Positions 32,461 through 60,049 of a DNA stretch of 64,000 bases are shown here, in pieces. The DNA comes from Raja brachyura. Its lineage: Eukaryota. The notes under the pieces were generated by a model. The model made no database searches, was not told the origin of the DNA, and saw nothing but the letters and a program-made list of their open reading frames with translations. The DNA lies in assembly GCA_963514005.1 (NCBI GenBank), contig OY740809.1:20398001-20462000 (forward strand), given 5' to 3'. How positions within the stretch are numbered: the first letter of the stretch is position 1; the number at the start of each line of letters is the position of its first letter. Both the position numbers and the translations under genes were made by a program.

Positions 32461-32474
32461 CATAGACTTTCAAC

Positions 32475-32502
32475 CAAAGATCCTATTGCTATAGGATCTT
32501 TG
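32475..32502. mobile_element. 28-bp palindromic micro-MITE with 8-bp TSD (hAT-like)
   Basis: CAAAGATCCTAT-TGCT-ATAGGATCTTTG flanked by CTTTCAAC at 32467-32474 and 32503-32510. Confidence 0.7.
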
Positions 32503-33495
32503 CTTTCAACGATGCAGCAAGCAATGCAGAACCAAAGAACTGCAGATGATTGTTCACTCAGGAAAGGCACAAAGTGCTGGAGTAAGTGACTCAGCGGGTC
32601 AGACCGCAACTCTGGGGAACGTGGATAGATTACGTTTCTGGTCGGGACACTTCTTCAGATTAGCATGCAATTCAATTAATTGTAAATAATACCCGGTTTA
32701 TCAATTTGTGGATTTAAACATTTCTTCTTCGGTGAGCATTTTCATTTTAAAATAGCAATGTCCTCACTTCAGGGTAACCTTTAAAGGTGCCGTTTTTTAA
32801 AATTCACAACGCTGTAGCATTTTGCGATGAGTAGCATTCCCGATATGCTCGTTGAGGAGCCTCCAGTCTGAAGAAGGGTCTCGACCCGAAACGTCACCCT
32901 TTCCTTCTCTCCAGAGATGCTGCCTGTCCCGCTGAGTTACTCCAGCTTCTTACGTCTATGCTCTTTTTATGATTTGTAAATATTACTGGCGAAGTTATGA
33001 CGATAATAGGAATAATGCGATTTGTTATGAAAGTTGCTTTAATGTTCTGTGTTAAACTATTTTAGAATATATTATTCGTGAAATATATTTTGAACTTTAA
33101 ATATTTTAACATGAATGCATATCATTTCTGTACTGAATGGCGGCCAACGTGTCCCATTTATACGTCCCACCTGCCTGCATTTGGCCGATATCCCTCTAAT
33201 CCTATCCTATCCATGCACCTGTAATCCTACCCTATCCATGTAGCTGTCCAAATGTTTTGTTAAATGTTGCGATAGTACATGCGTCAACTATCTCCTCAGG
33301 CAGCTCGTTCCATACACCTACCGCCCTTTGCTTAAAAAGGTTACTCCTCATTATTAAATCTTTTTAATAACTCCTCATTATTAACTCTTATTAAATCTTT
33401 CCCCCTTACCTATGTCCTCTGGTTCTTGATTTCCCCTGCTCTGGGCATGTGCATCTACCCAATCTATTCCTATCATGATTTTGTACAGCTCTATA

Positions 33496-34386
33496 GGGAG
33501 GTTTCAGGGCAGGTGGGTCACGACCTATGACCCGTACTGTTGCTGCCTTATGCCAAGTGGAGTACACGCGGTGAACTGCAGGTAAGCACTTACCATTGTT
33601 TCCAGTGTAGCGGGCCCGTTAAAAAACGCCGAAATTGTCCATTTTTGCGCTGTAAATAATTATGGAAATCGGGATAAGCGTGAGAGACATTTAGTCTACA
33701 TCAGAATTCCAAAAGTGAGGAGAAATTACAGTAGAAAGAAGCGAAAGCTGAAGGGACAACAACAGTCGGAGTGCATGGCGAACATTGGCCGTTTGCTCAC
33801 TGCATTTCATCAACTAAGGCATTATTTTAGTTTTTTTTCTTGAGTCCTTTGGCATCTAAAAAGTTTCAGAACTGGTAAATCTGGCTGTAATTTTTTTTAA
33901 TCGCCCATGGTTCTCAAGCGTTTACATACAAAAAGAAAACGCCTCTGAAGCAACATTTACAGCCAGATTTATCACTTCTGAGACTTTTTAGAAACCAAAT
34001 CAAGAAAAAACACAAATAATGCCTTACTGTTGATGAAATGCAGTGAGCAAACGCGATAATTCCAATATTTTCAATTCCGATATCTGCACGGCCAATGTTC
34101 GCCAAGCACTTTAGCTGTTGTTGTCCCTTCAGCTCTCGCTTCTCTTTATCTTCATTTCGCTTCACTTTTGGAATTCTGACGTTGGGTACATGTCTCTCAC
34201 GCTTACCCCGACTTCCACAATTTTTTACAGCGCAAAAATCCAACTTTTTGGCGGTTTTTAACAGGTTGGAAAGTACGCGATTCTTGTATTAATAACATAT
34301 ACCGGAAGTTATGGATGTCCTCCAGATGGATTGAGTGGCTCCGTGCGTCAAGCCCTATGACCCAGTGACCTTGCGTGCAAACCCCC
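33496..34386. mobile_element. Foldback non-autonomous DNA transposon whose two arms carry THAP-domain remnants; interrupts a minus-strand CR1 fragment (~33150-34860)
   Basis: Ends are TATA-GGGAGGTTTC ... AAACCCCC-TATA. ORF 33914-34243 (FCAVKNC...RIPKV...LANIGRAD...HCISS) resembles a THAP finger, and an inverted degenerate copy lies at ~33620-33900. Confidence 0.65.
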
Positions 34387-36868: not shown

Positions 36869-38032
36869 TTAGACTAGTTCATCTTTGTCAGCCAGGATTT
36901 CTCGTACGGCATGAACTTGGCAGCTTTCTGGATCTTCTCCCCCTGAACTCAGGAACTCCGTCTCGCCATCAGGCTCTCTAGAAATCCAGCCAGACTCTTT
37001 GTCACCTTCCTGAAATTCTGTATCATGGTCTGCATGTGAATCTAAGTCGATAAGCTCATCAAAATTTGTTGGGTCTATGCAGTTAATGCACAGACCTAAA
37101 GATTTGACCCAATCTTGTGCAGTTTTGGTTGCAATGCCAGTGAATGGCTTCTCGCAAACTTTGCAAGTAATGATGTCTCTAGATCTATGGACCTGGGAAA
37201 AGTTCAAACAATGCGATGACATGAATGAAATGAGAAGGAAACACTAAATATTATTAGGAACAAATAGAACTCATTGCTCTTGATGATCAGAGCAATAGAC
37301 ACATTATAAATGTTGAGGAGAACAAAATGATGAATTTAAGAAAAAGTGAAAGCAAAATCCTGTTGCAATGCTGGCAAAAAAGTACCAACTAACAACATCA
37401 AGACTAAGTACCTCAAGTTCATTTGCACCTCTACTAAATCATAAAGATTCACTTTTTACAATATAAAGAGACACAACTATGATACTAAGGCAAGATGCTC
37501 AGAGATTCAGGCAAAATAGATATTAAAGTTTTAGATCATAAATGGTCTGTGATTTAATTGATGTTTAATGTTAAGCAAAACTACTTGTAGACATATTAAG
37601 GGGAAAGGTGAATATCATAAAGGAAACCACCAAAACAGATCATGAGGCAGAAAAAGAGTTCCACATTCACATTTGATGATATCCAAGAGATAATGCCAGT
37701 ATGAACCAGCTGATATTTCTGCCACCTCCCCATTATTATTTACATTATTGTCCAACAGGTGTTTTATCTCGCTTCAGAAAATCTAGCACAAGCAGGATAT
37801 CGAGTTCCTGTCGCCTGCAAAAAAAAAATCAACTTCAGTAATCAGCACGACCTACACTCAGGTGGTGGTTGCGGAGATGCTCAAGTCGTGTGAATCGCTT
37901 GTCACAGGAATTGCAATAATATGGTCTCTCTCCTGTATGTGATCGTAGATGTCGCTTCGTCAGATTGCCTCTTCACAGTATGTGTACAGAAAGGGCACTT
38001 GAATCTCACCTTTCGTAATACATTACAGTCTC
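36869..38032 (-). pseudogene. ZBTB8A: Truncated ZBTB8A duplicate: last two coding exons only, frameshifted, BTB exon deleted
   Basis: Exon copies at 38032-37856 (177 bp vs 179; GCTTC--GTCAG vs GCTTCAAGTCAG, a 2-bp deletion in finger 1) and 37192-36869 (324 bp, open). Upstream, homology jumps from ~54125 to ~57700 of the intact gene. Confidence 0.88.
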
Positions 38033-40599
38033 CTTAGAAATAAATTCAGACTTAGTGTGATCTTTAACCAAATTGAGAATATCCGTAGCTGTAAATCTGC
38101 AATATGACCACAGTAAATAATGCAAATAGAAACATGAGTCATAACAATAGAACATTACTGAGATTTAACACGGTTGAAAATCGACAGAGGCTGAAATGTC
38201 TGACACTGGATGTTATATTATCTTACTTATAGTATGTATCACGCTATTATTTTCCTTCTGTATATCTGACATTTTCTTCAACCTAAATATGCAAATTTTG
38301 AGCAATATTTGCATTTCCAGCTCTTATTTCTCTTCACCAGGTTTTTTGCTTACTTGGATAACCCCTGCAAAATGCCTTAGAATGTTTACTGTGCCCATAC
38401 AATTGGAAGCAGTTGCAGCAGTCTTCAGAAATTTATGCAATGGACAACAGTGACGTCCAAACAAATGACGATTCCAACCAGCTCTTGATTCGTGCTGGAA
38501 AATATGTGAATAGTGCTTCTCTGAATACGAGCAGAAATGACCCTTGATCTTACTCATTAAGAGCAGTCCAATTGAGGGCATTAAAGTAATGAAATTGGAG
38601 GTAGAATTGGTAGGCAAGTTTACTCTTTATAAATAAATATGCAAAGGTTTTCCCTACACGCAGACACCAATTGCAATGCGCATATGCGACCAGAGGGGAG
38701 GATGTGCAGAGCTGTGTTTGACCTGCGGGTACTAATTAGCTAGGTTTAACTTTTTATGTGCGAGCAGATTCTATTTGGACAGTTTTTCATGTTAGGTACA
38801 TGCCAGCATTGTAACTATGCTAGATGCAGAGTACAGGCCTTCAGTCCTACAGCTGGGTTATTGTCTGGCCAATAGATTTAGCCGTTTCCAGTTCTCTCAT
38901 GGGGCTAAAAGGAAGTACCTGACCTAAACAATCCAAAACAAAATCTCAACTCATGCATACTCTCTGATTGGGGCATTATGCCTCTCTAAATTTATCTTCT
39001 GGTGCTTGGATGTATCTTAGCCACAATATCACAAACATTATTTTCAATCTTTGGTCTGAGTTATCCAGTATTACGCATCGGGTGGCCAATTTCACTTGAC
39101 TCTGACAATTCCATTAGCTTAAAAATAGTTATAGCTGGTCAACAAGTGGGTTTAAGTGAGGGTGTGAGAGTTCAAGATATGCACGTAACTGTTAAGAGTG
39201 AAGGGTATGGCTGGCAGGAGTAAGATGGTATAGGTATAGGCAGCTGGGATCAAGAGTTCCCTTGGAGGAGTTTAGGGGATTGAATAATTTGCTTGGGAAG
39301 GAAACCAGGAAGACAAAAGGGGGGCAGGAGATAGCTGGCAGATAAGATTAAGGAGTGTCCAAAGAGATTTTATATTAAGTGAAAGGTGTGACAAAGTGGT
39401 CGGCCACGTGTGAAATCGCAAGAGGTGGGCAAAGTCCTGGGCATCGTAATAGCAACCTGAGAGGACAGCTTCTTCACACAAAGCATTTGGAATGTGCTAC
39501 CTGACTGAGGTAACAATACATTTAAAGTCATTTGGAGAGGTACACGGATAAGAACGTTTCAGATGCATTTGGGCCAAGATGCTCTATTACTCCAGGACTC
39601 TATGTGTTTGTTTGAAGCAGCTAGAATGTAATGAACAAAACATTATTGCTTACTCTTTATTAAGGATCACATTAACAGAGTTTCTGAACAAGGTGAATAT
39701 AACAGCAAATAACAAATTACAGGACAACTGTTTATTTACTGTGACCACATCAAATAAAGTCAAACTGCAGTATTTACACAAATCAGCAAATGATGTAGAA
39801 AGCCCCATTAAAAAGAAAGGCATTGAAATAGTTACACATCTTCCTTATTTCCAAAGCAAATCTGTAACATATAAGTGAAGTTGGCAGAGAGAGCCACCTT
39901 CAATGAGTGCCATCAGTGTTCTTGGAAACGACATATACCCTGAAACACCATGTCCATATTGCAGGTGTGATTCTCTGGCCCGAGTGTAATTTTGGAAAAC
40001 AGCAATTGAAGGATTAATTAAAAAATCCTAAAAAAATCATGTACGTTTTTAATAATCTTCTGTTCAGTAAAAATATTTGATCCGATTATTGTAGTAGTTT
40101 GTACATCAAGTTTATTTTCAATAAAATTGTAAATAACCAGTAATAACTACTGGTATTACTTTGATTTCTGGCAATGTTTAACAGCGTTAACAATGTGGAT
40201 TTTATTGATCCAAAGCAACCTTTATAAAACTGTTTAAAACTCAAGTTCGATCATGGATCTTTCCCAGGTAGCAATTTTTTTTTTAATTCGCAAGTCATGT
40301 GAAGCAATACAAAATTATGAAAGTATAAAAGTCACAGCATAGCTCATTCAACCTCAACATATGGAGTTTATGGTCAAAGATTTGTACTTTGGATAGCTTT
40401 TTTTCACCTTACATTGAACTGAGTTGTCAGGTAATGTGCTTTGATTTATAAAATTATGTAATCTCCATTTTATCACATTTCATTCAATGGATAATTTTCA
40501 TGTGAAAAATAATAATAGTTTAATCATGTTCTTTAATCACTTTCAGAATTATAAAATACATTCCTTTGTCATTCTCAGTAGAACTACATTTTTTGCTGA

Positions 40600-43500
40600 T
40601 TATGAAACGCCTTCCATTTTCACTGTCCAGCCATTTTTTGAGGGAGCAGTAAATGTAGAAAGAGGGGACAGGGAGATGAGAAGGCCTTTGGTGGGAGATG
40701 TCGTCCATTTCAAAGGTTTTGGGATTCCCAACATTGTCACCTGGAGAGATAGCACAAGAGCATGAAACGAGAACAATTCATAGGATGCATCTCAGTCTGG
40801 TGACAACTGTTTTCCTCTTGACCACATTATCCTACAGAGTGGTGAACACAGCCAAGTCCATCATAGGTCTATCACTTCCTTCCACCCAGCCCATCTTCAT
40901 GGTACATTAGTATTAGGAAGTTGGAAGTGAAGGATGCCTGTTACTCTGGCCATTCCCTTTACTCTACCTTCTTGGAGATGACTTAGGAGCTCAAAAGCCT
41001 GAAGTACAGCTTCTTCTCCCTAACATACTCGAGAATTATTCAACTCCTTCCAATAGGTGCTGTCATGTACCTTTACTCATAACTTTGCCTTATTCCATTA
41101 ACGCACTTTTGTAATTTTTGCAATACTTCAAATCACACTACAATCTGCACCATTCTGCTGTTTTGCATTTTTTTGTATTTATCATCACCATGTCTACTGT
41201 TTACCATAATCGTCATGCAAACTAGAGAATTCTATTACACCCTGGTGCATATTACAAATTAATCCAAATCTGAAGCCTGGTGCAGAATTGAAATGTAGAA
41301 ATATGTAGGTTTTTCCATGCGTCTGGGAGATTCAAGAACGGTGCCACTAAATCAGAAAAGGTGACCGAGGAAAGACCTAGAACCTGACACAAGACGCTCT
41401 TGCATGGACTTGCGTCTGGCATGACAAACATCGCAAACATCAACATGATAGAATGAAGCTTGATGTACTGCATGGTATGACTTCAGTTGCAATAAATGTT
41501 AACTCTTGTTATCAATCTAGACTTGGGGAACAAGTAGTATTTGTGAGATGATTTATTGCAAGATCCTTTTGTCAAACAGCCTTGGAATAAATTGCCAAAC
41601 ATTATTTTAAAAGAAGTTGACGAAAAACTAAATGGGGAGAATGCTATTTAATTAATATATAGGTCAGAAGGAAATGACAATAGGCCAGGTTTACTGAGGG
41701 TCTAATTTGCACTTTATGACCATAACAATTTAAGTATAAATTAAGTATAGTTATGGAAGGATAAAGATGAGTGAGAAACGAACTGTCAAGAGAGCAATAT
41801 TAAAAAGACAAATTGATGAGGAAAAAGCTGAAAAAATATTGAGATGAAGGAAGTGGAAAGTTAATTGGGGATTTTTAGAGTTTTTTTGGTTGTGTTATAT
41901 TCCAGGACAAGCCAAGCATGCAACCTGAATAAAGTAGATTACTCCTGGGGTATTGAAATATCTAGAATAAATAAAAGATGAAGCTCGAAATTTCAGAAAA
42001 TGACGAAGGAGTAAAGAATATCAAACTGTTGACTAAAAAACCATTGTCAGCAGCAAGCGATGATTCTAGAGGATATTTGTTTGCCCAGAATAGCATGAGG
42101 TAGCCTGTAGGTAATTTCTGAGAATACTACATGGCAGAATGACTATCGATTTATGCTTTTGTTACCAGTGAATGGGCAGAGAAGTCCAAGTAGAAAAAGC
42201 ATGAGGGAGCTCTTAGACTAGAATATCCTTAAACATAGATGGATATATTATCATTTCCGTAAGCAAAATAAATTGTTTTCTGATACTTAACAAATATGGA
42301 ACTTCTAAAAGATATCCCAGACAGAATATTGGAGAAAAAAAAAATAAGAAGACTCAGAATGACAAGGAATATGGCTGATGAATAAAAATATTGTAGCAAA
42401 TGTTGGATAATTTAATAAAAAGGAACAGGAGGGGTTAAAGGAGGAAAATTAAGTATACATTTGTGTTATGTTCAATCTTAGGACAACAATTACCAAACTT
42501 ATATAATGTATGTACAATTAGCAACCATGAAAACCAGGGCAAAAGCAAACAGATTTGATGATGATTGTCATTTGGAACAGACTGAAATCATTGGAGTCAA
42601 CTATGAAAGGTTGGCTATAGATCAAGAAGTTGGTTGGGAATGAAATAAGTTTTATATACTTACAGTGGTGTTTGGTAAGGTCTTTGGCGATTCCAGTTGT
42701 AGGATGTTGTCAATGGGCCACTTTGTAAATATTCCATAAACTGAGGATCCTTTACTGGTGTACCTGGAAGGAAGAAAAGAGTAGAATGTAAAGGTGAGCA
42801 GTGAATTAAGACACTGCTTGCCACAGAAGGCTGTGGAGGCCAAGTCAATGGAAATTTTTAAGGCAGACATAGATAGATTCTTGTTTAGTACGGGTGTCAG
42901 CGGTTATGGAGTGAAGGCAGGAGAATGGAGTTAGGAGGGAGAGATAGATCACCCATGAACTCTTGTACATCATTCGGCTTGTACTCGCTAGAATTTAGAA
43001 GATTGAGGGGGGATCTTATAGAAACTTACAAAATTCTTAAGGGGTTGGATGCAGGAAGATTGTTCCCGATGTTCTTAAGGTCCAGAATAAGGGGTCACAG
43101 TTTAAGGATAAGGGGAAATTCCTTTAGGACCGAGATGAGGAAAACATTTTTCACATAAAGAGTGGTGAGTCTCTGGAATTCTCTGCCACAGAAGGTAGTT
43201 CAGGCCAGTTCATTGGCTATATTTAAGAGGGAGCTAGGTGTGGCCCTTGTGGCTAAAGGGATCAGGGGGTATGGAGAGAAGGTAGGTACAGGATACCGAG
43301 TTGAAATGATTAGTCATGATCATATTGAAGCCCCCTAACATCAGGTTAATTTATATTTAAGGTTTGAAAATTGGTGATTAACTGATGCGCTCCAGTAAAA
43401 TGGAAGTAGATTCAACTTTCACCTCAGGAAGTAATTCAGGAGTCTTCCAAGTTTTTAATCCTATAGACTTGAAGCTGAATCTATTTTTAAAAATCCCCAA

Positions 43501-46500
43501 AAGTAAATGAGTAGAAGTTTGCACAGTTTCCTGTGACCTCATGGGTTTCCTCCCACATCCCAAAGACATGAGGGTTTGTACGTTAATTTGTGTCTATACA
43601 TTGCCCCAGTGATAGGGAATGGGTGCAAAAGTGGAAAAACAAATTAGCGTGAACAGGTGATCGATGGTTAATATGGACTCAGTTGGAGCCTGTTTCTATG
43701 CTGTATCTTTCAATCAATCAACTCCCCTTTAATCATTTTGCCATTTACCTGAACTATGGGGTAATTTACAGTGACCAATTAATCTACCAGTATCTCTTTG
43801 GGACAAGGGAGGAAAGAAAATGGTCACAGAGTGAACATGCAAACTCCACTCAAGACAGCACCCGAGGTCACGATCAATTCCAGATCCCTGGAGCTGAGGA
43901 AGCAGTACTATTCATTGCACCATCTTGCCTCCCATCTTTAAACATGAAGTGACTGAATATAGGAATGAAGAATGGTGCAAAGTGAAAATAAATAGTTGCT
44001 ACATTTAAACCCGATGGATATTACCATATTATATTTGTAGAGTTCTCTTTCTGAACTCTCCATGGTGTTGATGCATATATTGCTTCACCATTAACACGCA
44101 ACCACTGTCCCAGGCCACGCAACCTTTCCTCAAAAATAGGAGGTATGGTGCCGTCTTTCGTTGGACCGATGTTGAGCAGGAAGTTGCCACCATAAGCGAT
44201 AGTATCCAGTAAATTCTGCCAGAAAGAGAGAGATTTTGCAATGATATCCAATACCACAGTTCCGATTCTAATTCCAGGCCTCATAACAACAATGGACCAT
44301 TATATTTTTGCACAATTTCTCAAGACCATCCCAGAGATCCTACTGGATTGCTACTGTGCATATCACCCTAGTTTGCTAAATAAATTGTAGTATTTGCACA
44401 TGATTAACTAGCTTTAAGCATCCACCATCATCACATAAAAATACTTTGTAAAACATTTTCAATTATTTAAAAATTCCTTGCATTAATCTAACTCAAAGCA
44501 CCATCACTTAATGGCAAGTCCTGCGGAAACTGCAACTTCATTTTCTCCATAAATATCTGCTTGAAAGACATTGATTCAATGCAAACCAACTCACTTAAAT
44601 GTACGGAATGGCTTCTCACTGTTACAGCTGGACTGAAAACATTTTACAGTGTCCTGATTGAATACTAATATTTCTGGTTATTTATTAGTAGGCTTAACAG
44701 TTGAACACAGCATCCCTGTACTGGTTTCAGAAACATCCTGCTCAAAGTTAGTGGCACATGGGTCAAATGTTATGTCCACGACTGGTTGAGACACAAGTAG
44801 GAAACGATCTGACCTCTGTTTTCATTTGTTTGCTGAGAAAGTTATCCCAATGCACTTTTGCCTGGACTCATTTTCATTCCAGTGATGTACCATATTGATT
44901 AACCTGGAGTACATACAGTGAGAAGGGATGGCAGATCCATCACGTCGCTCATCATCATATTTCTGCGATATCCCCATGACCTTTTGTCGACTGAGGTGCA
45001 CATCTCCCATTTATGGTTCTGTAGTTTACTGGGACTGTATTTGTCTTGGCAGTTGTAGAAGCCACCATGTTTACAAGCGCAGCCAACTCCCCAGCGGTCA
45101 TTAGTTACCACAGTATCCTAGTGACAGAAATTATATATTTTTTAGACTTGTATTTAGATAGCAGTTTTACAACCACACCATGTTACCAAACACTTTACAG
45201 CATAAAGTGATAGGGCATAACAGGAAACACAATTTTATTACCAGCAGAATCAATATGCAGGGGACTGGAATTATTTCAATACATTTGTCTACATACCATA
45301 AAATGGGGTGGAAAGTGTCTACACGATGAAACTAAATTTAGTGGAAAAGAAAGAACAAAAAATAGTGCAACTTTGTCAAAGATACCTGGGAGGTCAATAA
45401 AATTAATTCTGCAAGAAATGAACAGAGCATAAATTGAAAAGATCCAATATGAAAACAATGAAGCTAGCCAACCCAGAGCACTTAGACAATCAAACTAGTG
45501 TGGGTATCGAAGTACTTCGATTTGATGTGAAAAGTGTGAACAAAAGTAGATAAGTTATTTTAAGAAGGTGATTCCATCAATTTAAAACAAACTTTTTAAA
45601 ACTCAAACAATATAAAGTTGGTAAACACAACACCCAACTGCTTCATCACATAAGATGCTGCCCACATTTTGAGTTGGTGATTGTAAATGACCCAACGTGT
45701 TTAAATAAGGTGAAGTTGCAGCTCTGTCATGAAGCTTGACGTGATCTACAGACTTTCCCACAATTAAAACCATTACTACGTTGATCAAAATGTGGGGGGG
45801 AAACACGGCTAATCAATTGTATGATAGGGGAATTTTTCAAACAATTCAGTTCATTGTAAAGCCAACAGCTTTAAATGAATAACTGGAGCAGTCTGAAGAA
45901 GGGTCTCGACCAACCATTCTTTCCCTCCAGAGATGCTGTTCCACTAAGTTGCTCCAACATTTTATGTCTATCTTCGGCATAAACCAGCATCTGCAGTTCC
46001 TTCCCACACAGCTTTAAATGATATTTTGTTAATACAGAAGTAAGAAAAAAAAAAACAGGTAAATGAGCCTAATCCCAAATAGGCCAATAAATAAATTAAA
46101 AATGAAAAAACTGATCATTGTTAAATTATAATCACCGATATGGATTGCGAATATTGTTTATATATACCTTGACAGGACTATCATTGTAAAGCCAGGCGAG
46201 AAATCCAGTGGAATTCCAGTAAGTATCCGGTGCCTCCCAGTCCCCATCTGACCAGATTATATCAGGTTTATATCTATCAGAACACAAAACAAAATTCCTA
46301 TAATTTCTAGACATTCATGCGGCAAAAACCTGATTCTATTTACCAAGGAATGACATTGTCTTCTTTAAAGATATCTTAAAATTAACATTGGTTCTTTTGG
46401 AATTCAACTAGGGAATTACGTCATCTCAATTAGTTTGAATGCAGTAATAGTACTAGGATTACCAATATTACGAGGCTTAAAATATAAGCAGCAAATTAAT

Positions 46501-49500
46501 GATGTAACTGAAATTATTTTGTCTGATTACATTGTTGTTAAATCATATGGGGGAAATAAAAGATAATTTGATGCTTTCACCCATTCATGCTACACCAGAG
46601 TATATTTTTAAAGTGAAACAATGTGACAGCCGTTTAGCTGCCTTGAAGTGAAAAATTCCCGCTAATTTTAGCAATTTTTTCCATCCTGAGGAGTTTTATT
46701 TTGATTTTCAAAAGACTCAGATCCCAGGTGCAAAGTTAAAGCACCATCTACTGGTCTCTCTGATAAAGGCATAATACAAGAGACACTGCACACATCAAAT
46801 GTGTTTGTTAGTGATGAGAACATTTACAACAAAAGATTGCAAAACTATCATATGGCATTACCTTGTGACCAGATCGTAGAGTTCTGGTAAAGTTTTTTCC
46901 ACAACAAATTTCTGGGTCTTGAATTTGTTTAGCTTGTCATACAAGTAGAGAGGGTTAAACCACTCAAAGAGAGAATGGTACACTCCATAATATAACTTCC
47001 TATTACAAAAGAACAACAATTTTGCAATATTAAACTCGGAATGTCAGTTTATTTTACATAACAGTTGTGCATGGTTAAAAATAGCCCATGTATTGTTGCA
47101 TGCTATCCAGTCAAAGACAAGATTTTACATGATTATAATCAACCCATCCACAGCATTCAAATACAGGGTAAAGTTCAATTAAAGATAGTTCTAAGGTCTC
47201 CAATGAGATAGATGGGAGTTCAGGACTGCACTCTAGCAGGTGAGAATTGATAGAAATAAATAATTCTCATTGGCAGAAGGATCAGGAAATGGGGAGGCAA
47301 TAATAAAGGCTATTGGCAAACCAACCAAACAGGCGAGTGATTAGGATCTGGAATACGCTGCCGAAGGTAGCAGTGGAAACAGATTCTGTATAATTATTAT
47401 GGACTTCATTTGTCTGTATAGACCAGGGCAATTATAAATACAGTGAATCTTCCCCAAATACATAATATTAATACAGACCGTTTACGAACAGCAGCTGCCA
47501 GATCACCCACTAGATCTCGATGTGGTCCTGTGTCAATGGAGTTCCAGTTCCAGGACACTGGTGATCCCCAGTTTGTGAACCCTTCATGGTGTTTTGTTGT
47601 CAGCACCACATATCTGAAAATATAAACCACAGGAAAACAATTAGTCAATAACAACCAAGGCCAAAAGGCAAGTAACTCTTAGATATATCTGCAAGCCATC
47701 TTTATTTTAAAACACAGACCAATGCTTGTAGTTCGAGCTTGGCATTTTAAAGCGTCTATAAATTAGAGTGAAACGTGTGAACATTAAGTGTGCTTTTAAT
47801 TTAGATGTACTGTGAAGGTTACCTATTCACAAGTTTTCAGGGTTACACACCGAGTTTGCGGTGACCGGCAATCAACCGTACACTAGTTGTATCCTACACA
47901 CTAAGTAGAACTTACAGAACCCAATTAACCAACAAACCTGCACGTCTTTGGAATATATAATGAGCACCCTTAGAAAATCCACTCAGTCACAGGGAGAAAT
48001 TACAAACTCCATACAGACAGCACCCATACTCAGGATCGAGCCCAGGACCCTGGCGCTTTAAAGCAGTAGCTCTACCAATGCACCGTCTCATAGCTATGCC
48101 ACAATGCTACCCATATTCATTGGGATGAGCCATCATAAGTGCTTGAACATTGATAAGAGATCTCTGAAATTTGTCTTTCCAGAGGAAACTGAACGAACAG
48201 TGCGTTTCAGCTATTCTCTTTGTGTTTCAGATTTCTAATTCTGATTAGGGCACAACTTCCAATAATGTACTGAAGAAATAATTCATGCTCATTCGCTTTT
48301 ATTTTAACAATGGAGCCAAAGCCACTGAAAGTTAGTTAAAACACCACGCTTGACACATATTGAATGGGGACACCACCCTGTGCACTCTACACTGAAAAAG
48401 GGTTCCGACCTGAAACAATGCATATCCATTTGCTCCACAGATGCTACCTGACCCACTGAGTTCCTCCAGCACTTTGTGTTTTGCTCAAGATTCCAGCAGC
48501 TGCACTTCCTCGTGTCACACTTGCACTACCTCAGCCATTCAACCCCATTGCCCCTTTTTCTCGTTCTCAGAAGAATAGGTGTTGAGATAAATTATCGGCA
48601 ATGCCAGGTTCAACACGTGTTCTGACAGAAAGGAGACAAAGTGCTAGAGTAAGGTACGCGGGTCAGGCAGCATTGTTGGAAAACATGGATAGTGACGTTT
48701 CGGGGTAAGACGCTTCTTCAGACTGTTGGAGGATGGGGGTGGGGAGAAAAAAAGCGAGAAGATGGGAGAGGCAGGACAAAGCAGAGCAGGTAAAAGATAG
48801 ACAAGCAAGGAGTGGAGTGTGATAGATGGTTGCAACAGAGGTCAGATATAAGAGCTGGAAATTGCAAAGCTAGTGGGAGGAAAGTCACAAGAGGGGTGGG
48901 AGAAATAGGTGGGAGGTAGATGGGGCACATGGGGGAAGAGAGGGGGAGGGAGGTTTTGTGGGGAACCCCATCATGGATAGCACTCTAAACAAAGTTTTTC
49001 ACTGTATCCTTGGACACGTGACAATACCAAAACTAAACAGGGAAAGGTGCAGGAAGGAACTGCAGATGCTAGTTTACACCCAACATAGACACAAAATGCT
49101 GGAGTAACTTAGCGGGACAGCAGCATCTCTGGATAAGTCTGCTTTGGTTCAACTCATCCTGCACCACTGCCCTGGCCGGTTTCAGTTCTGCTCGTTTAAG
49201 ATCTTTGGTTTGAGCAGCTGATGCTGGCGGTTGTCATGTGACCGGTCACATGAACGAGAGCTCACGTGAAGCTCGGGCTAATTATTCAAACTCAGCAATA
49301 CTGTAAATGTAACATTGGCGACATTGCCTAGACCGGACAAAACACGTCTCTAGTCAAAAATAGATAAGAAAAGCTAGAATAACTCTGCGGGGCAGGCAGC
49401 ATCTCTGCAGAGAAGGATTAAATGGGGGACGTTTCGAGTCGAGACCCTTCTTCAGACTGACATCTCTAGTCACCCATCTTTTTATCAATAAAGACATTTC

Positions 49501-49946
49501 TACACCAAATCTATCCTTTCTCGACACTGAAAATCGGTGGCTGCTGACATTTGCTCGGCTTTGGCTGCGCTTTTCACGAACCTAGCTCCGGATTCCTCGA
49601 ACAGTTCCGCCCATTGATCCGGGTTGAAGAAGGTGGCGGTGAATTCTGGAGCGAACTCGCTGTATTCGAACCCCGGTGGGTAGTTCTGTGCCATAAACGC
49701 CACATAGCTAAATTCCCTCCTTCCCTGCCAGTTCCACCAGAACCACTCGCTGCCGAAGCTGGGCACGGAAAACACTCCCCAGTGGATGAAAATCCCAAAC
49801 TTGCTCTCATCGTACCAGCTGGGTAAAGGCCTGCTGTCAAGACTCTTCCAGTTCGGTTGGTAAGGGCCATCGCAGAAAGCCCTGGAGCATAAATACCCGG
49901 TAAGGCAAATAAAACTCAAGAGACTCTTGCACCCCATGATCTGCAT
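40600..49946 (-). CDS. FUCA1: Tissue alpha-L-fucosidase (GH29), copy B, 8 exons, ~458 aa, intact
   Basis: Exons: 49946-49582, 47613-47479, 46999-46862, 46273-46168, 45117-44917, 44215-44025, 42763-42664, 40740-40600. Same lengths and phases as copy A, GT-AG sites, catalytic motifs intact; about 27 aa differences from copy A by manual count. Confidence 0.95.
49233..49269. promoter_or_regulatory. Cluster of three CLEAR/M-box motifs in FUCA1-B intron 1
   Basis: GTCATGTGAC (49233-49242), GTCACATGA (49245-49253) and TCACGTGA (49262-49269); 49234-49253 is a perfect 20-bp palindrome. Confidence 0.5.
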
Positions 49947-50009
49947 CCTTTGTACATAGAACAGGAAATGATCGCTCCTGTTACGTCACTTCAAGCATAG
50001 ACTTTCAAC

Positions 50010-50037
50010 CAAAGATCCTATTGCTGTAGGATCTTTG
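50010..50037. mobile_element. Paralogous copy of the 28-bp micro-MITE at the FUCA1-B promoter
   Basis: CAAAGATCCTATTGCTGTAGGATCTTTG flanked by CTTTCAAC at 50002-50009 and 50038-50045. Confidence 0.7.
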
Positions 50038-51431
50038 CTTTCAACGATGCAGCAAGCAATGCAGAACCAAAGAACTGCAGATGATTGTTCACCCAGGAAA
50101 GGCACAAAGTGCTGGAGTAAGTGACTCAGCGGATCAGACCGCAACTCTCGGGAACGTGGATAGATTACGTTTCTGGTCGGGACACTTCTTCAGATAAGCA
50201 TGCAATTCAATTAATTGTAAATAATCCCGGTTTATCAATTTTGTGAATTTAAACATTTCTTCCTCGGTGAGCATTTTCATTTGAAAATAGCAATGTCCTC
50301 AATTCACTGTGTGGGTTCTATCAATGTTTGTGCTCCCAAAATGCAACACTTCACACGTCTCTGTTAAATTCCATCAATCATTCTTCCGCCCACCTGACAA
50401 ACTGATCAAGATCCTGCTGCAATTTCTGACAACCATCTTCATGGCGGGACATGGTCATATCTTGGAGTTTCCTGCTGAAACCCAACCCAAATCTCCCCAA
50501 AATATATTTCTACATGTCTATTTAACCAACGTTTGTACAATGCAAACTCTGTAGATTTTTAAAAGCTAGAATGTTCATATCTTTAGCAGACATGCATTAT
50601 GGTTCTGTAGGTAGGAAAATAACAATGAATAAGATTAATCTATTACAAGAATGTTTTAATGCATTTCTTTATGTGATGCCATCTGGTCATGTCTGATATT
50701 TTGGTTCACTTTCCAAAGAATGGCCCTTTAACATAACCCAAAAGTTAAACATGCCTGAAAGTTGTGTAAATAGTTCCACATGAAGAATTAACATTAAAAA
50801 TACACAAAATGACACAAAATATTAGAGTAACTCAGCAGGCGAGACAGCATTGCTGGAGAACATGGATAGGTTAACTTATTAAAAATGACAAGCACCTTAC
50901 CTAAAAAGTATAAAATCTACCCTGAACCTTCATCTGTCAGATCTATCCTTTGTATTATTTTTCAACACCATAGGAATATAATTTATTTTTCTTCTGAACA
51001 GTGTAAAATAACATGGCTTATTTCACAAATAATTGCATTGATCAAAGTTTTTAACTTCACAGCTCTGATCAGTCAGGCAGCTTGCCTGACTTCCATTATT
51101 AGATCAGCATAAATATCCATCCATGAAATATTGGAAAAGAACAAACCTTAGCCTCTATCACTAACTGTACCATTGACACTGACTCCATCCCATTGCCTGG
51201 TAATGAAGTAATACAGCAATTTGGAAGTCCCAAGCAGCTCTCAATATACTCCTTCATCAAAATGGCGCCTTGATCAATTTCCAATGCCCCACTCACCTGT
51301 TGATGCTCACCTGTTGATAAAACACATTCATGCCTTTGTTTCTGGACTTAATTGTTAGAAGAACAACTGAAAATACTATTCTTTGCCAAAGATTTTGGCT
51401 AATGCTAATCCAGTTTGAGCTGTATATTACG

Positions 51432-51569
51432 GGGTGGGAGATTGCAACCTTAACGTGGTCCGCCCTGTTTCAACAAATGCAATCAATCCGGCGTGCACAA
51501 TCAAATAAGATCAAATAGAACAAGTTGTCTGACAACTTTAGGCTGTGCACGCCATACGCAAGAAGAAGT
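51432..51569 (+). mobile_element. Short 5'-truncated non-LTR insertion with (AAG)n tail (RTE-like)
   Basis: 9-bp direct repeat TATATTACG at 51423-51431 and 51570-51578; the insert ends GCAAGAAGAAG. Confidence 0.55.
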
Positions 51570-52506
51570 TATATATTACGAAAGGATGGTATGGATAATC
51601 AATCCACAATAGTCAATTATGTTATACTTTGTGTTTTACTAATAAAATAGTGTTTCATACCCAGTGAAAATACCTGCAGACAGCGAGGGTGTGCTGAAAA
51701 CAAAATGACAATTTGGTGACAATAATAATCAATTACATTGAAAGTGTTCTGTCACCTGCAAAGCCTGAAATCTTAGTAGCAAAACCAGGTAACAATGTTG
51801 ATGGATAAATGTATACATTCTGCCTGTAGTATCATTTCGCAAGTTGAATTAACATGATAGACAAATCTTTTTTTTTTTACCCAGAGTTTTACATTTCTAA
51901 AATTATTCAAACACAAGGGCTCTATATTTTTGTTCATGTCTTTCAATGACATCTGGTTTATAAACATACATCTTGAAGATCATTTTGAGCAAAATAAAAG
52001 TATATGAAAGTACATTGAAATGAGTACAGTACAGAAGCTCATTGATCCAATCCCACACTGGCTCTCCACCAGAGCAACATGATGGTGAATATTTGAACAT
52101 AAATACATTTTAACATTACAACATGACTGAAACAAAGGTATTAATTTAACTGCAATTCTGTGCGTCCATTTTCTCTTTAACAAACGTGCCGAAGAGGTTC
52201 TTCGCTATAGGGTTTAGTCTCTCTTAGTTTTAAAAACATACAATATCCAACATGGAACACTTTTACAAAGCTATACAATCGAATGTCAATAATCTGAACA
52301 ATTACCATCCCACCTTTCCTATTGAACAGAAACGAGAAACAACTAATACAATTGGTATCATTAACATTTTAAGGGGCAAATAAATGTCAAATTGATACAA
52401 CTTACATTTTAAACCCCTCGGGTAACTCTTATACTTTTCTTGCTTTAATAGAAATGACTCAGCACAGAATGGTTCCTCAGTCACTCTTCTCAACGGTATC
52501 ATAAAC

Positions 52507-55232
52507 TTAGACTAGTTCATCTTTGTCAGCCAGGATTTCTCGTACTGCATGAACTTGGCAGCTTTCTGGATCTTCTCCCCCTGAACTCAGGAACTCCGTC
52601 TCGCCATCAGGCTCTCTAGCAATCCAGCCAGACTCTTTGTCATATTCCTGAAATTCTGTATCATGGTCTGTATGTGAATCTAAGTCGATAGGCTCATCAG
52701 AATTCGACGAGTCTATGCAGTTAATGCACAGACCTAAAGATTTGGCACCATCTTGTGCAGTTTTGGTTGCAATGCCAGTGAATGGCTTCTCGCAAACTTT
52801 GCAAGTAATGATGTCTCTAGATCTGTGGACCTGGGAAAAGTTCAAACAATGCGATGACATGAATGAAACGAGAAGGAAACACAAAATATTATTAGGAACA
52901 AATATAACTCTTTGCTCTTGGTGATCAGAGCAATAGACACATTGTAAATGTTGAAGAGAACAAAATGATTAATTAAATAATTAATGAATTAATAAAAAGT
53001 GAAAGCAAAGTCCTGTTGCAATGCTGGCAAAAAAGTACCAACTAACAACATTAAGACTCAGTACTTCAAGTTCATTTGCACCTCTACTAAATCATAAAGA
53101 TTCACTTTTTACAATATAAAGAGACACAACTATGATACTAAGGCAAGATGCTCAGAGATTCAGGCAAAATAGATATTAAAGTTTTAGATCATAAATGGTC
53201 TGTGATTTAATGGATGTTTACTGTTAAGCAAAACTACTTGTAGACATATTAAGGGGAAAGGTGAATATCATAAAGGAAACCACCAAAACAGATCATGAGG
53301 CAGAAAAAGAGTTCCACATTCACATTTGATGATATCCAAGAGATAATGCCAGTATGAACCAGCTGATATTTCTGCCACCTCCCCATTATTATTTACATTA
53401 ATGTCCACCAGGTGTTTTTCTCACTTCAGAAAATATAGCACAAGCAGGATATTGAGTTCCTGCCTACTGCAACAAAAAAAAAATCAAATTCAGTAATCAA
53501 CAAGACCTTACACTCAGGTGGTGGTTGCGGAGATGCTCAAGTCGTGTGAATCGCTTGTCACAGGAATTGCAATAATATGGTCGCTCTCCTGTATGTGATC
53601 GTAGATGTCGCTTCAAGTCAGATTTCCTCTTCACAGTATGTGTACAGAAAGGGCACTTGAATCTCACCTTTCGTAATACATTACAGTCTCCTTAGAAAGA
53701 AATTCAGACACTTAGTGTGACCTTTAACCAAACTGAAAATATCCGTAGCTGTAAATCTGCATATGACCACAGCAAATAATGCAAATAGAAACACGAAACA
53801 TAACAACAGAACATTACTGATAAATATAACATGGTTGAAAATTGAGAGAGGCTGAAATGTCTGACACTGGAAGTTATATTATCTTACTTATAGCATGTAT
53901 CAAGTTATTATTTTCCTTCTGTATATATGACATTTTCTTGTTAACCTAAATATGCAAATTTTGAGCAATATTTGCATTTCCTGCTCTTTCTCTTCACAAG
54001 GTTTTTTGCTTTCTTGGATAACCCCTGCAAAATGCCTTAGAATGGTCACTATTTGTCCATACAAATGGAAGCAGTTGCAGCAGTCATCAGAAATTTATGA
54101 AATGGACAACAGTGACTTCCAAACAAGTGAATGGACGTTTAAAGTTACTCCATTCGGCCAGACATGTATGCAGTTGAACAGTATATAAGTGGTTCATGGC
54201 CGTCAGATTTGTACGGCAAATGATAAATCAGGTACCCATTAAGATAAGGTACCCAGACACCACACACCAACAACCTGGCTCGATCTTTGTCATTAAAGGA
54301 CTGCTATGGCTACCTGCTATTTCTCTTTTCCATTTATCTGCAACTTCCACAATTTTAGGTATTGGTGGATTACAGTCTTCTGTCTTTCGATCCCTATTTT
54401 GAGAAGGTTGCTCAATTGAGTCACTGTAATTTTGTAGCAGAGGCAGCATATCAATCTGCTGATGCCTGAAACAACTCACTGGAAGGGCAATTGATTCCAA
54501 ACCTGATACTCTCTTCTTGTCACCATAGGGAACAACTTTGTTGTGTTCAGATGTTATTGCATTTGCACCTGAAACACACAAGTTACTGGCTTTGTAAACA
54601 GCAAGTTCAGAAACATCCATACGCTCTTGATTATTGGCGATAGAAATTGATAACTGGTCTCTGGAAAAGGGAAGGCTTGAAATTGCTTGATGAAAGTTGA
54701 AACTTATCCGGGATTGCCCAACAAGACTTCCGACATTGGAGTTCTTCCGAGTACGGCAAGAATTAGTCTCCAGATTCTGGCTGATGGTGTGCAAGGATGT
54801 TGCTTCACTGCATTTAATCTTGCCATTATTGGAATAACTTAAATATTTCTCTTTTACACTTATGTCCAGTGATGATTTGATGAAGTTCTTGCAAACACTG
54901 AACACATCTGTCATTTGCAGGTAGCTGGCTGCTGACATCACATCAATAACATTTTGGCTTGAGAGTGACAGTGTTCCCGAATATATGAAATCTAAAATAA
55001 TTGTAAATGCATCTGCAGAAAAGACGTTGAACGTGGCTACAGTAGGCTGTCCCGCATCCTGGGCACTATGCAGAAGTAGCATACGGAAGTAGCCACAGCT
55101 GGCAAATAAAACATTACGGTGACATTTGAAGACTCTTCCCTCCACAATGATGCTACAGTCACAAAACATTTCTTGTTTGCGCTGTTCATTTAATTGGTGA
55201 AATAAACGGGCTTGGTGTGAGAAGATCTCCAT
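52507..55232 (-). CDS. ZBTB8A: Zinc finger and BTB domain-containing protein 8A, 3 coding exons
   Basis: Exon 55232-~54236 encodes [45 protein letters not shown]...SSLDIS, the ZBTB8A-type BTB; the phase-1 donor ATGG|GTACCT is my best guess. Exon 53690-53512 encodes [47 protein letters not shown]. Exon 52830-52507 encodes [13 protein letters not shown]...LCINC and an acidic tail. Confidence 0.9.
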
Positions 55233-55331
55233 TCTGAGAGCTGCCTGAGGTGACACGAGTCTGTAACGGATATGAAAAATATTATTTTGCTACGATTAGA
55301 AGGAAATCCATATCAATAATATACACCAATG

Positions 55332-57080
55332 CAGTGCCCTCCATAATGTTTGGGACAAAGATCCATCATTTATTTATTTGCCTCTGTACTCCACAATTTG
55401 AGATTTGTAATTTTAAAAAAATCACATGTAGTTAAAGTGCACATTGTCAGATTTTAATAAAGGCCATTTTTATACATTTTGGTATCACCATGTAGAAATT
55501 ACAGCAGTGTTTATACATATTCCCCCCCCCCCCCCCCCCCCCACCCATCCACCCCCCCCCCCACACAATTTCAGGGCACCATAATGTTTGGGACACCGCA
55601 ATGTCATCTAAATGAAAGTAGTCATGTTTAGTATTTTGTTGCATACCCTTTGCATGCAATGACTGCTGGAAGTCTGCGATTCATGGACATCACCAGTTGC
55701 TGGGTGTCTTCTCTGGTGATGCTCTGCCAGGCCTGTATTGCAGCCATGTTTAGCTTATGCTTGTTTTGGGGGCTAGTCCTCTTCAGTTTTCTCTACTCCA
55801 TACAAGGCATGCTCAATCGGTTTCAGATCGGGTGATTGAATTGGCTACTCAAGAATTGACCATTTTTTAGCTTTGAAAAACTCCTTTGTTGCTTTAGAAG
55901 TATGTTTGGGATCATTGTCTTGCTGTAGAATGAATCGCCGGCCAATGAGTTTTGAGGCATTTGCTTGAACTTGAGAAGATAGGATGTGTCTATACTCTTC
56001 AGAATTCATTATGCTACTACCATCAGCAGTTGTATCATCAATGAAGATAAGTGAGCCAGTTCCTTCAGCAGCCATACATGCCCAGGCCATAACACCCCCA
56101 CCCCCGTGTTTCACAGATCAGGTGGTATGCTTTGGATCTTCGGCAGTTCCTTCTCTCCTCCATACTTTGCTCTTGCCATCACTCTGATATAAGTTAATCT
56201 TTGTCTCATCTGTCAACTAGACCTTTTTCCAGAACTGTAGTTGCTCTTTTAAGTACTTCTTGGCAAACTGTAACCCAGCCATCCTATTTATGCAGTTAAC
56301 CAGTGGTTTGCATCTTGCAGTGTAGCCTCTGTATTTCTGTTCATGAAGTCTTCTGTGGACAGTGGTCATTGACAAATACACACCTGACTCCTGAAGAGTG
56401 TTTCTGATCTGTCGGACAGGTTTTTCGGGATATTCCTTTAATATAGAGAGAATTCATCTGTAATCAGCTGTGGAGGTCTCCCTTGGCCTGCAGTCCCTTT
56501 GTGATTAGTAAGCTCACTAGTGCTCTCTTTCTTCTTAATGATGTTCCAAACAGTTGATTTTGGTAAGCCTCAGGTTTGGCTGATGTCTCTAACAGTTTTA
56601 TCCTTGTTTTTCAGTCTCATAACAGCTTATTTGACTTTCATTGGCGCAACCTATGTCCTCATGTTGATAAACAGCAATAAAAGTTTCCAAAGGTGATGGA
56701 AAGACTGGAGGAAAGACTAGATGCTGAGAGTTCTTTTACACATGTATTAAGGAGGCAATTAAATACACCTGCGTAATTACAAATGCCTGTGTAGGCATGT
56801 GTCCCAAACATTATGGGAGGGGGCAGGGGGAGGGGGGAGGGGGAGGGGGGAGGGGGAGGGGGAGGGGGGAGGGGGGGAGGGGGAGGGGGGAGGGGGAGGG
56901 GGCAGGGACTGGGACTATGTATAAACACTGCTGTAATTTCTACATGGTGAAACCAAAATGTATAAAACTATGTTTTAAAATCTGACAATGTGCACTTTAA
57001 CCACATGTGACTTTTTTAATTACATTTCTCAAATTGTGGAGTACAGAGGCAAATAAATGATGGGTCTTTGTCCCAAACAT
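55332..57080 (-). mobile_element. Tc1/mariner (IR/DR type) transposon with degenerate transposase, in a ZBTB8A 5' intron
   Basis: Long TIRs beginning CAGTGCCCTCCATAATGTTTGGGACA, with internal direct repeats at ~55580 and ~56800. ORF 55845-56114 reads KHGGGGVMAWACM...FILQQDNDPKHTSK. Confidence 0.9.
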
Positions 57081-58210
57081 AATCCACTTGTATATTGCAA
57101 GCGATTCAATCAAGCAGAACTTAAAATACCTTGTTTGCTTTGCTACAGCTTTCTGTCATCCTATGGAAGGGGATGACTATCCAGAGGTCACAAAATTAAA
57201 ATGTGCATGAAAACAACCAAAGGGCAAATGAAGAGGTTACATTCATTCCCAGCCCTCATGAAGACCTAAATACTATTAAGGAAGCACATTTTACTTTTAA
57301 GACCAAGCTTTAGTAGTTTCATGGCAAAAAAACTGAGGATGCAGCCCTAGATTAAATAAATAAATGAATGGGTTTAAGCTTAGAAAGATGAGAAGTGAAT
57401 CCACATCTCATGTTTTTTATGTAGTATCGAACAACTTTTTTTATATACAAGTTCTTCAGAAATGATATTGGCACAGGTGATAGGCCAAATTAGGCTTTGC
57501 ATTTCCCTGACTCTTCCAGCCCTATAACTCTCCAGGAATGTCATCCACTGGCTGCCATGCCTTCAGCCGTCTTGGACATGCCCTGGTATTCTCTCCAAAT
57601 ACCTTATCATCCACTGCTGTAAATGCCAGCCGATTCCCACTTTCAACCGGTTCCTTAAACCGTATTTCTCATGGCCAAAATTACCCATTTTTATAAAAAA
57701 AACTTCGCTGAATATGAACATAAATGGCCTCACACTTCCCTTGATCTCACTCATTAGCAGTCCAACCGAGGGCATTAAAGTCATAAAATTGGAGGTAGAA
57801 TTGGTAGACAAGTTTACTCTTTGTAAATAAATATGCAAAGGTTCCCCCAACACGCAGACACGAATTGCAGTGCGCGTTTGCGACCGGAGGGGAGGATGTG
57901 CGGAGCTGTGTTTGACCTGCCTGTGAAGCAAGGTAAGAATTTCCAAGATCCAATCCAGAGTGTGAATGACTTGATTGCAACTGGCCGGGTAACCAGAGTG
58001 GCGGCGGCGGCAACAGTGAAGAAAGAACGCCCGAGATCACCCGCCCGCGTCCGACACCCGCGCCGCCCGGACCACAGCGCACGTGACCAGCGGAGCGTGG
58101 GCGGACCAGGACCAACCGCCCGCGCACGAGACCAGCGCCGCGCGCAGCAACAGCAGCCCGGGTGGGTGGAACGGTTACGAGCGAGCGCAGCATCGGCGGG
58201 CGGGCGGGCA

Positions 58211-58235
58211 CAAAGATTATCCTCGATAATATTTG
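58211..58235. mobile_element. 25-bp palindromic micro-MITE with 8-bp TSD
   Basis: CAAAGATTATC-CTC-GATAATATTTG flanked by GGCGGGCA (58203-58210) and GGCGGGCG (58236-58243). Confidence 0.55.
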
Positions 58236-58375
58236 GGCGGGCGATCGGCCAGTGCAGGGGATGCATTATCTGCGGGAGGGGTGGGCGGCCAGTGCAGGGG
58301 GCTGCATTATCTGCGGGAGGGGTGGGCGGCAGCGGCGTGTCTCTGCCCTTCGGCCTTTCACGGGCTTGTTGCTAT

Positions 58376-58420
58376 CCAAGATCCTATAGCGTATAAAAGA
58401 GCTCCACTATAGGATCTTTG
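58376..58420. mobile_element. 45-bp palindromic micro-MITE with 8-bp TSD
   Basis: CCAAGATCCTATAG...CTATAGGATCTTTG flanked by GTTGCTAT at 58368-58375 and 58421-58428. Confidence 0.72.
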
Positions 58421-60049
58421 GTTGCTATTACCTCCACCTCGGGCTCTCATTCAAGCGGAGCAGAAAACCCCTTACCCGGGACAGACGACGCTTTCCACCC
58501 AGTCCGACCCGGACGTGCTTTTAACGCCTACAATTACAGCCGGTGGCACTGAAGAGGCGGAGTGCGACAGAGACCAGGACGGCGTGATTTTTATCCCGAG
58601 TACCGCGCTTTGACTACTCTCCAACTTCCTGTTTTTTACTCGGGTGTTTTGGAAAATAAGGCAGCGTCTGTCTTATGTTCCAAAACCGGACCGTCCCTCG
58701 GGAGCAGGGGCGTCGCTCCTTCCGTCTACATAATAGCTGCAGGAAGGAACTGCAGATGCTGGTTTACACCGAAGATAGACACAAAATGCTGGAGTAAGTA
58801 AGCGGGACAGAGAGCATAAATGGAGATAAGGAATGTCACCCATTCCTTTTCACCAGAGACGCTGCAGGTCCCGCTGTGTTACTCCAGCATGTTGTGTAAT
58901 AGGTCCCCCCGTCATGTTTGCAGATTAATGCAGCCTGAACGTTTAGAAAGGCATTGAAAATAAAGAATCACGTACCTTGGATAGACTCCAGCATTTTGTG
59001 TCTACCGACAATCATGTTCTTGATTAGAAAACATTCAGCAGGTCAATGACAATCAAAAGAAACATGCAAAACAGTTTACGCTATTAATATATTCGATGGC
59101 TTCATTTTTAGAATTAATTTAGATTTTATCTCGTGATCAAGAAATCCTTGAGGGCCTGTCCCACTTGGGCGACTTTTTAGGCGAGTGCAGGAGACCGCTT
59201 GCCTCATGATCGCCACATGTTCGCTGGTGAGTCTCCTTCGTGGTCACGATGAGTTCCCACATTCTGGTAACTAGTCGCGGCCTCAGTATGGTCGCCGCAA
59301 ATTTTTCAACGTGGAGAAAATCGATAATTCTGTAGTCGTTCAGTGCAATCAAAGGACCAATTGAGGTTACTCGTGCTGACACGGGAGTAAGTTCCACCGC
59401 CTGCTGTCCTGTTATCCATCGCCCACTGACCCGCTCCGCTCTAAGATCTTTGCTCTTCAAAGACACGGACCGGGCAGTGACTGCCATGCAGTGTCACCCA
59501 GCGCAGCGAGGCCATGTCCTGCTCCCAGAGGCAGGCGGAATTGAAGGATTTGCGGGAAGCGGCAGGAGAGAGGTGTTCAGATGGAGAGCATTGCCAGAGG
59601 TGAGCGGGCGGCAGATGGCACTGAGGTGGCGGCCAGTTCCGCTGCCCGGTCCCGGCGGCCGCTCGCAGCCAACTGAGCTACTTCACTCCCCAGCCACAAT
59701 GCGGTGGCTCTGCGCCCAGAGCGCCGTGGCAGCAGCAAGTGAGTGCTTTGCTGGTATGATCCCCAACCCCCCACTTCTCAATGCTCCTGCCTGTAGTGAC
59801 CCGGGCCAGACTCCCCACACGCTGTGAAAGGAACTCTTCCCCTCAATTAGTCCCTTGAACTAGTATTGTCATTCAATAAGATCACAACTGATTCAACTTG
59901 TCCCGGTGTGCTCCCGTTTTCCCCCACCATCTCCACCTGCCGTCACCCTCCACCCCCCACCAATTCAGTCATTCAGAATTAGGAGATTTGGAAGCCTTCG
60001 GCAAATTAAATTGTTACTTTCTTTATTTTCAGGTGCGTCTTCATTGCCG

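Follow-up and report, generated by a model that had tools for sequence, protein, structure and literature searches.

The window, which here means the whole 64,000-nucleotide stretch of Raja brachyura contig OY740809.1 that was analysed, carries several short hairpins enclosed by 8-bp direct repeats in the neighborhood of FUCA1- and ZBTB8A-like genes. Their presence raises the question of whether they are members of a mobile family reduced to its TIRs, as an earlier note on this DNA had proposed, remains left behind by a larger transposon, or palindromes that are not derived from a transposon.

Hairpins and target duplications in the window

Re-reading of the window sequence recovered all four hairpins of the earlier note, together with their flanking 8-mers, at the positions given there. 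Site 1 consists, by direct reading, of a left target duplication CTTTCAAC (32467–32474), a 28-bp hairpin made up of two 14-nt TIR stubs placed head to head (32475–32502), and a right target duplication CTTTCAAC (32503–32510); the first ATG of FUCA1 follows 64 bp downstream of the hairpin. Its duplicate, a hairpin at 50010–50037 with both CTTTCAAC repeats (50002–50045), is carried by a tandem duplication of the FUCA1 region and is non-independent, so that the hairpins at 32475–32502 and 50010–50037 count as a single event. The two FUCA1 promoter regions show 55 differences in 1169 aligned bases. Site 3 (58368–58428) comprises a 45-bp hairpin at 58376–58420, with 14-nt arms and a 17-nt interior, between two copies of GTTGCTAT. 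As previously claimed, this hairpin contains TATAAAAG, found at 58392 on the plus strand and thus pointing away from the minus-strand ZBTB8A gene; the 45-bp copy with its TATAAAAG is entirely missing from one related species.

At site 2 (58203–58243), a 25-bp hairpin (58211–58235) is flanked by GGCGGGCA and GGCGGGCG, a repeat that is embedded in a run of GGGC and is less convincing than those of the other sites. The view that one hairpin family occupies all three sites holds for sites 1 and 3 and fails for the 25-bp copy, which matches the common end in its first 7 nt only and was assigned to a sister end family because it differs beyond them. An 8-bp target duplication is present at 3/3 two-ended window sites. 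The lengths of the window hairpins all differ (28, 45 and 25 bp, and 21 bp for a one-ended remnant), and so do their interiors.

When the shape was defined generically as an 8-bp repeat with at most one mismatch around 10-bp arms with at most two mismatches, over 20–120 bp, the window gave five matches as compared to a shuffle mean of 2.3, with at least four matches in 17 of 100 shuffles, which is not beyond chance. Combined with a CAAAGAT-like end, the same shape had a shuffle mean of 0.03 and a maximum of 1. The 14-mer CAAAGATCCTATAG matched six times in the window (at most one mismatch) versus 0.02 expected, and none of 100 shuffles gave six matches. On folding, the remnants form strong hairpins (z −4.5 to −10.7). 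A hairpin at 6008–6041 was rejected as a further member, having another end sequence and a chance-level shape. Decayed frames at 4171–7412 resemble those of a DIRS-type retroelement.

The statement that such insertions are missing from introns and flanks does not fully hold, given a one-ended intronic stub and unpaired ends at 59452 and, weakly, at 16915. The one-ended remnant (31659–31695) has an 8-bp repeat with one mismatch around a 21-bp stub (31667–31687) with a single TIR-like end; the stub is located in the first intron of FUCA1, at a distance of some 360 bp from the donor of exon 1, and has a duplicate at 49187–49207. A minus-strand portion of a high-copy repeat (59340–59452) carries a variant TIR end at 59433–59452, for which no partner end was found in the window, and is a candidate for a longer relative of the parent family. 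Some of the contig pieces that cover this very high-copy repeat continue across position 59452. The unpaired TIR-like end at 16902–16915 on the minus strand has two mismatches to a loose pattern with 0.53 matches expected, and may be a chance match.

The gene names FUCA1 and ZBTB8A used in the earlier note are backed by alpha-L-fucosidase and BTB domains and by ZBTB8A best matches. Coding exon 1 of the first FUCA1-like copy spans 32047–32411 on the minus strand (Pfam PF01120, with ATG and donor), and that of the second copy starts at 49946. The BTB coding exon of the ZBTB8A-like gene, identified by its BTB domain and protein matches, is an open frame at 54231–55232 on the minus strand, its exon end being approximate; the best named matches are from sawfish (71%), sawshark (66%) and devil ray (64%), and point to a cartilaginous fish, probably a batoid, as the host, while the SINE of this DNA suggests a skate. 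Sites 2 and 3 both lie in a CpG island (57701–58900; CpG o/e up to 1.11 versus 0.45 in the window), about 2.5–3.5 kb upstream of the ZBTB8A coding exon. Given a putative minus-strand splice donor near 58469, they would fall in ZBTB8A intron 1.

The claimed position near gene starts was upheld within this window. A promoter-proximal zone covering 8% of the window contains 3/3 two-ended sites, and 4/6 sites when the one-ended remnant and the unpaired ends are included (p ~0.0005). Since this zone was drawn post hoc and two of the sites share one island, promoter enrichment, observed for three sites in one window, is a hint only.

Several other features were noticed in the gene region. The tandem duplication extends over about 18100–38900 and 40400–53300 and comprises, besides the two FUCA1 copies, two copies of the last ZBTB8A coding exon (36869–37243 and 52507–52968). 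The FUCA1 exon 1 frames are open in both copies and differ in a short stretch past the WFWW motif. In each of the two copies, a CRE-like octamer (32446–32453 and 49981–49988) is located between the FUCA1 ATG and the hairpin. A foldback-like element at 33615–34265, upstream of FUCA1 copy 1, has nested inverted arms that measure 178 and 65 nt; the single ORF tested had no Pfam match. The ZBTB8A upstream intron contains an inverted-repeat element (55372–57058), presumably Tc1-like, with a decayed transposase-like frame (55845–56117) that likewise gave no Pfam match.

Orthologous sites and metagenome copies

Contigs from 4 of 20 listed sequencing runs (organisms B, D, F and G) were placed on 57960–59600, and orthologue states were read from the ends of contig pieces and from letter counts rather than from printed alleles. 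Empty orthologous sites, sought as the earlier note had proposed, appeared as a 53-bp skip at site 3 in organism F and as the missing site 2 hairpin in organism D. In organism F, one piece ends at 58367 and the next starts at 58421, and the skip corresponds to the 45-bp element plus one 8-bp repeat; up to about six contig letters at this site are unaccounted for. The 45-bp copy is intact and without gaps in organism B, and present with at most 13 letters deleted in organism D, while contigs of organism G extend 8 nt into both of its ends and then stop. The hairpins are insertions.

The comparison at site 2 is based on organisms B and D, as contigs of F and G do not cover this site. Here 88 letters of the window are represented by 18 in organism D, and 41 of the 88 constitute a tandem unit also missing in organism B; since subtraction of the tandem unit, the element and the repeat leaves 14 letters, organism D lacks most or all of the site 2 hairpin. 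In organism B the site 2 copy measures 34 bp, with nine extra letters, seven of which repeat the left arm. A 41-bp tandem duplication in the CpG island of the window (58248–58329) is lacking in organism B.

Extra contigs accumulated on the 45-bp copy in three of the four runs (B, D and F, not G), more densely on its right half, a depth that is not to be read as copy number; some of them match the 45-bp copy minus 1 or 5 interior letters. This pile-up, together with the variant end that the high-copy repeat carries at 59452, suggests that longer elements with these ends probably exist. None of organisms B, D, F and G showed a long element at an orthologous site, and no long element with paired ends was detected in the window, in viral contigs or in prokaryote genomes. 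Nine ORFs near the ends or in the metagenome loci did not yield a transposase family. The search for paired hairpin ends in viral contigs gave 0 matches; nine single-end matches in viral contigs, without a partner end and repeat, were judged to be due to chance.

Further copies outside the window, which the earlier note had expected, were found by an exact scan of metagenome contigs for both 14-mers within 30 bp. The identical 14-bp end occurs in hairpins of 33–51 bp at 12 metagenome loci (L001–L012), which represent 10 independent sites, L001, L005 and L012 being one site. The hairpins at these sites measure 33, 36, 38, 38, 40, 46, 48, 49, 49 and 51 bp, that is, eight lengths; none of the 10 falls in the range of 52–58 bp although the pattern allowed it, which is weak evidence (p ~0.08 if lengths were uniform). 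A perfect 8-bp repeat flanks 4/12 loci, one with a single mismatch 1/12 and a perfect 9-bp repeat 1/12, whereas no clear repeat was found at 6/12 (four independent sites). In a subfamily of six loci, four are made of two stubs of a 24-nt arm which overlap by 2–5 nt, the overlap being GC in two cases, CGCG in one and an imperfect match of 5 nt in another; the remaining two have the structure 24 + 1 + 24. L003 and L006 both are 49 bp long with 24-bp arms and differ by one compensated pair, but are flanked by different perfect 8-bp repeats; L009 has 46 bp. The flanks of the hairpin at L007:1488–1561 share 13 bp with two mismatches, with no clear 8-bp repeat.

The host of these loci is an unrelated animal, because they have no blastn match to the window outside the pattern, their CpG is barely depleted (0.63–1.22, as compared to 0.45 in the window), and a DUF4517 gene and a reverse transcriptase piece occur in their flanks.

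Proposed excision footprints, target sites and alternatives

A transposon origin with 8-bp target duplications, as put forward in the earlier note, is borne out by the repeats, by a shared end beyond chance and by the empty site. The second part of that proposal, a mobile family reduced to its TIRs, is not supported, in view of the lack of a shared length or interior at independent window sites, of the one-ended stub, and of junctions at microhomologies in related copies. Variable lengths, arm-derived filler, the one-ended remnant and microhomology junctions fit repair at a donor site of the P kind, and from this architecture we infer that such repair took place at the remnants. The hairpins are probably, though by no means certainly, footprints without mobility of their own, left by the excision of a cut-and-paste transposon of the P-superfamily type that inserts near promoters.

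In the course of events that we propose, an element with CAAAGAT ends inserted and 8 bp of target were duplicated, as is directly visible; judging from P biology, this element would have preferred open, CpG-rich DNA near gene starts. Its transposase presumably excised it by making staggered cuts deep within both TIRs, so that single-stranded tails of TIR sequence stayed behind on the chromosome, and the tails would then have been joined at short microhomologies, as seen at the junctions of the metagenome copies, or with filler. The expected product is a succession of repeat, TIR stub, filler, TIR stub and repeat, variable in length and sometimes one-ended. Such scars would be too short for further movement and mostly neutral, and might persist near promoters because they, unlike full-length insertions, are tolerated there.

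The available text on the P element describes 8-bp duplications and a promoter preference (PMC7776569). As to cleavage, P transposase cuts in such a way that 17 nt of single-stranded TIR remain as tails at the donor (PMC2895639), whereas hAT transposases, for which 8-bp duplications also are typical, generate the hairpin on the DNA next to the element and set its ends free (PMC5499845); for this reason the hAT superfamily suggested in the earlier note is the less likely source. All remnants are made up of TIR sequence between intact repeats, and none is a scar of target DNA only, an observation that counts against hAT only if the remnants are excision scars. Stubs of no more than 17 nt, as a 17-nt staggered cut would give, are present at sites 1 and 2 and in the left arm of site 3, but the right arm of site 3 measures 20 nt. 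The metagenome copies, with arms of 19–24 nt and stubs of up to 24–25 nt, are above the tail length of Drosophila P, suggesting a deeper cut, repair synthesis before joining, or one of the alternatives discussed below.

Target preference was assessed with matrices from PMC3276498 (supplement 6) and a P consensus from PMC2577343 (section 6) at eight sites, which did not include the one-ended remnant, the site with a 9-bp repeat and the four metagenome sites at which an 8-bp repeat is unclear. The P matrix fitted these sites better than local background (p = 0.0007), as did the 14-bp palindromic P consensus (p = 0.0001) and also the hobo (hAT) matrix (p = 0.011). The advantage of P over hobo, 8.9 bits, was not significant (p = 0.12; repeat core alone, p = 0.40), and within the core the two best window sites scored equally well or better on hobo. 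The T2 and A7 positions of the hAT target nTnnnnAn are present in 4/8 sites. A Buster-type target motif did not fit (p = 0.68). A motif of four flank positions had been derived from the same data and was left out of the evidence. The P superfamily has terminal motifs of the CA(A/T)(A/G)G type; the CAAAG end would fit this motif and likewise that of hAT. We only infer the P superfamily, from the scar architecture alone, because no transposase was found and the target matrices do not separate P from hAT.

An observation that speaks against footprints is the near-identical 49-bp palindrome at two metagenome sites, as would be expected of a mobile unit; the six metagenome loci that lack a clear repeat, the lack of an orthologous long allele and the missing pile-up in organism G also count against them. 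The pair L003/L006 at its different perfect repeats, the 46-bp locus L009, and the other contigs that match the 45-bp copy less 1 or 5 letters would suit a truly mobile micro-MITE of about 45–51 bp, nearly all TIR and moved in trans, the shorter copies of which are later central deletions of an unstable palindrome; Made1, a human TIR-only MITE of about 80 bp, is a further point in its favor. We nevertheless consider a micro-MITE unlikely, since the window's three sites have no interior in common, the 10 independent metagenome sites show eight lengths, and a one-ended remnant is present. Moreover, identical junctions recur in P excision too: among the Drosophila products listed in Table 1 of PMC2895639, which include asymmetric, one-sided and templated-filler types, one 30-bp join was recovered 14 times. 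Known P-MITEs, as far as described in the accessible part of PMC1562414, retain about 100 bp of the parent ends.

The strong folding of the remnants is compatible with a collapse that requires no transposase, in which a longer TIR element lost its interior as its two TIRs paired in the course of replication and the intervening loop was bypassed or cleaved, or with aborted gap repair after hAT-type excision; microhomology joins are equally expected from such processes, the target sites fit hobo also, and 8-bp duplications are typical of hAT (PMC5499845, in the part available). Collapse does not predict stubs near 10–25 nt per end in two unrelated animals, hAT cleavage itself deposits no TIR at the donor, and the empty length class of 52–58 bp is a further, weak argument, which together make this explanation rather improbable in our view. 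That the hairpins represent conserved elements of the promoters or accidental palindromes, as might be argued from the location of every two-ended copy near gene starts, from the generic shape arising by chance, and from one matching hairpin in a scan of 185,579 prokaryote genomes, we regard as very improbable: the 8-bp repeat differs from site to site, the shared end is far above chance, and the 53-bp skip in organism F largely refutes such an origin. The bacterial hairpin, terminator-like between convergent genes and without a flanking repeat, was rejected as a relative.

Relation to known systems and a possible shared lineage

Excision footprints of a P-type transposon, which we favor as the explanation, are a type of object already known from fly experiments. 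The hairpins resemble Drosophila P footprints, as far as those are described in the consulted parts of PMC2895639 and PMC7776569, in having the 8-bp duplication on both sides and TIR stubs whose junctions show microhomology, are blunt or contain templated filler, in comprising asymmetric and one-sided products, and in a parent that inserts near promoters. They differ from them in being natural, fixed or segregating between species, in occurring in a vertebrate and an unrelated animal, in TIR sequence, and in metagenome stubs of up to 24–25 nt versus a fly tail of at most 17 nt. The zebrafish element Pdre is a vertebrate P-like transposon with 13-bp TIRs starting with CA, 8-bp duplications and many internally deleted copies; however, its TIRs are unrelated past the first bases, and the available text of PMC10983969 does not report TIR-only remnants. 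P-MITEs of Anopheles likewise are non-coding P derivatives with TIRs and 8-bp duplications, but according to the part of PMC1562414 at hand they are hundreds of bases long, uniform per family, and keep about 100 bp of the parent ends. With hAT elements the hairpins share the 8-bp duplication and a similar target preference (PMC5499845; hobo matrix, PMC3276498 supplement 6); the scars described for hAT in the portion of PMC5499845 available are, in contrast, built of target sequence due to hairpin formation on flanking DNA, and not of TIR stubs. Among the papers listed in our literature search, none dealt with P elements of skates or sharks or with such scars in cartilaginous fishes, and the literal TIR string matched only in a paper on gut microbiota; a catalogued match in Repbase or Dfam may exist.

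If a cartilaginous fish has a natural set of P-type footprints, this would mean that a P-type element was recently mobile in the germline of a vertebrate and targeted promoters there. Scar lengths alone would give the cut depth of an unstudied transposase, and the scars would supply presence/absence markers between related species. The scars might conceivably influence how FUCA1 or ZBTB8A is expressed.

As the end recurs in an unrelated animal, horizontal transfer becomes testable. It is conceivable, if doubtful, that a single P-type lineage, identical in its 14-bp end, was active in rays and skates as well as in an unrelated invertebrate-like animal, by horizontal transfer or extreme TIR conservation, cutting up to about 24–25 nt, instead of 17 nt, inside its ends and leaving species-specific scars concentrated at vertebrate promoters. 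If so, one could read from the scars which promoters are accessible in the germline and what end joining produces, and promoter indels that distinguish related species would have a source overlooked so far.

One of the metagenome loci contains a PHD-finger-like frame (L002:1289–1747). Its longer relatives, which are unnamed, carry PHD and PF02338 domains; protein matches of a flank ORF of the metagenome loci were limited to four unnamed proteins.
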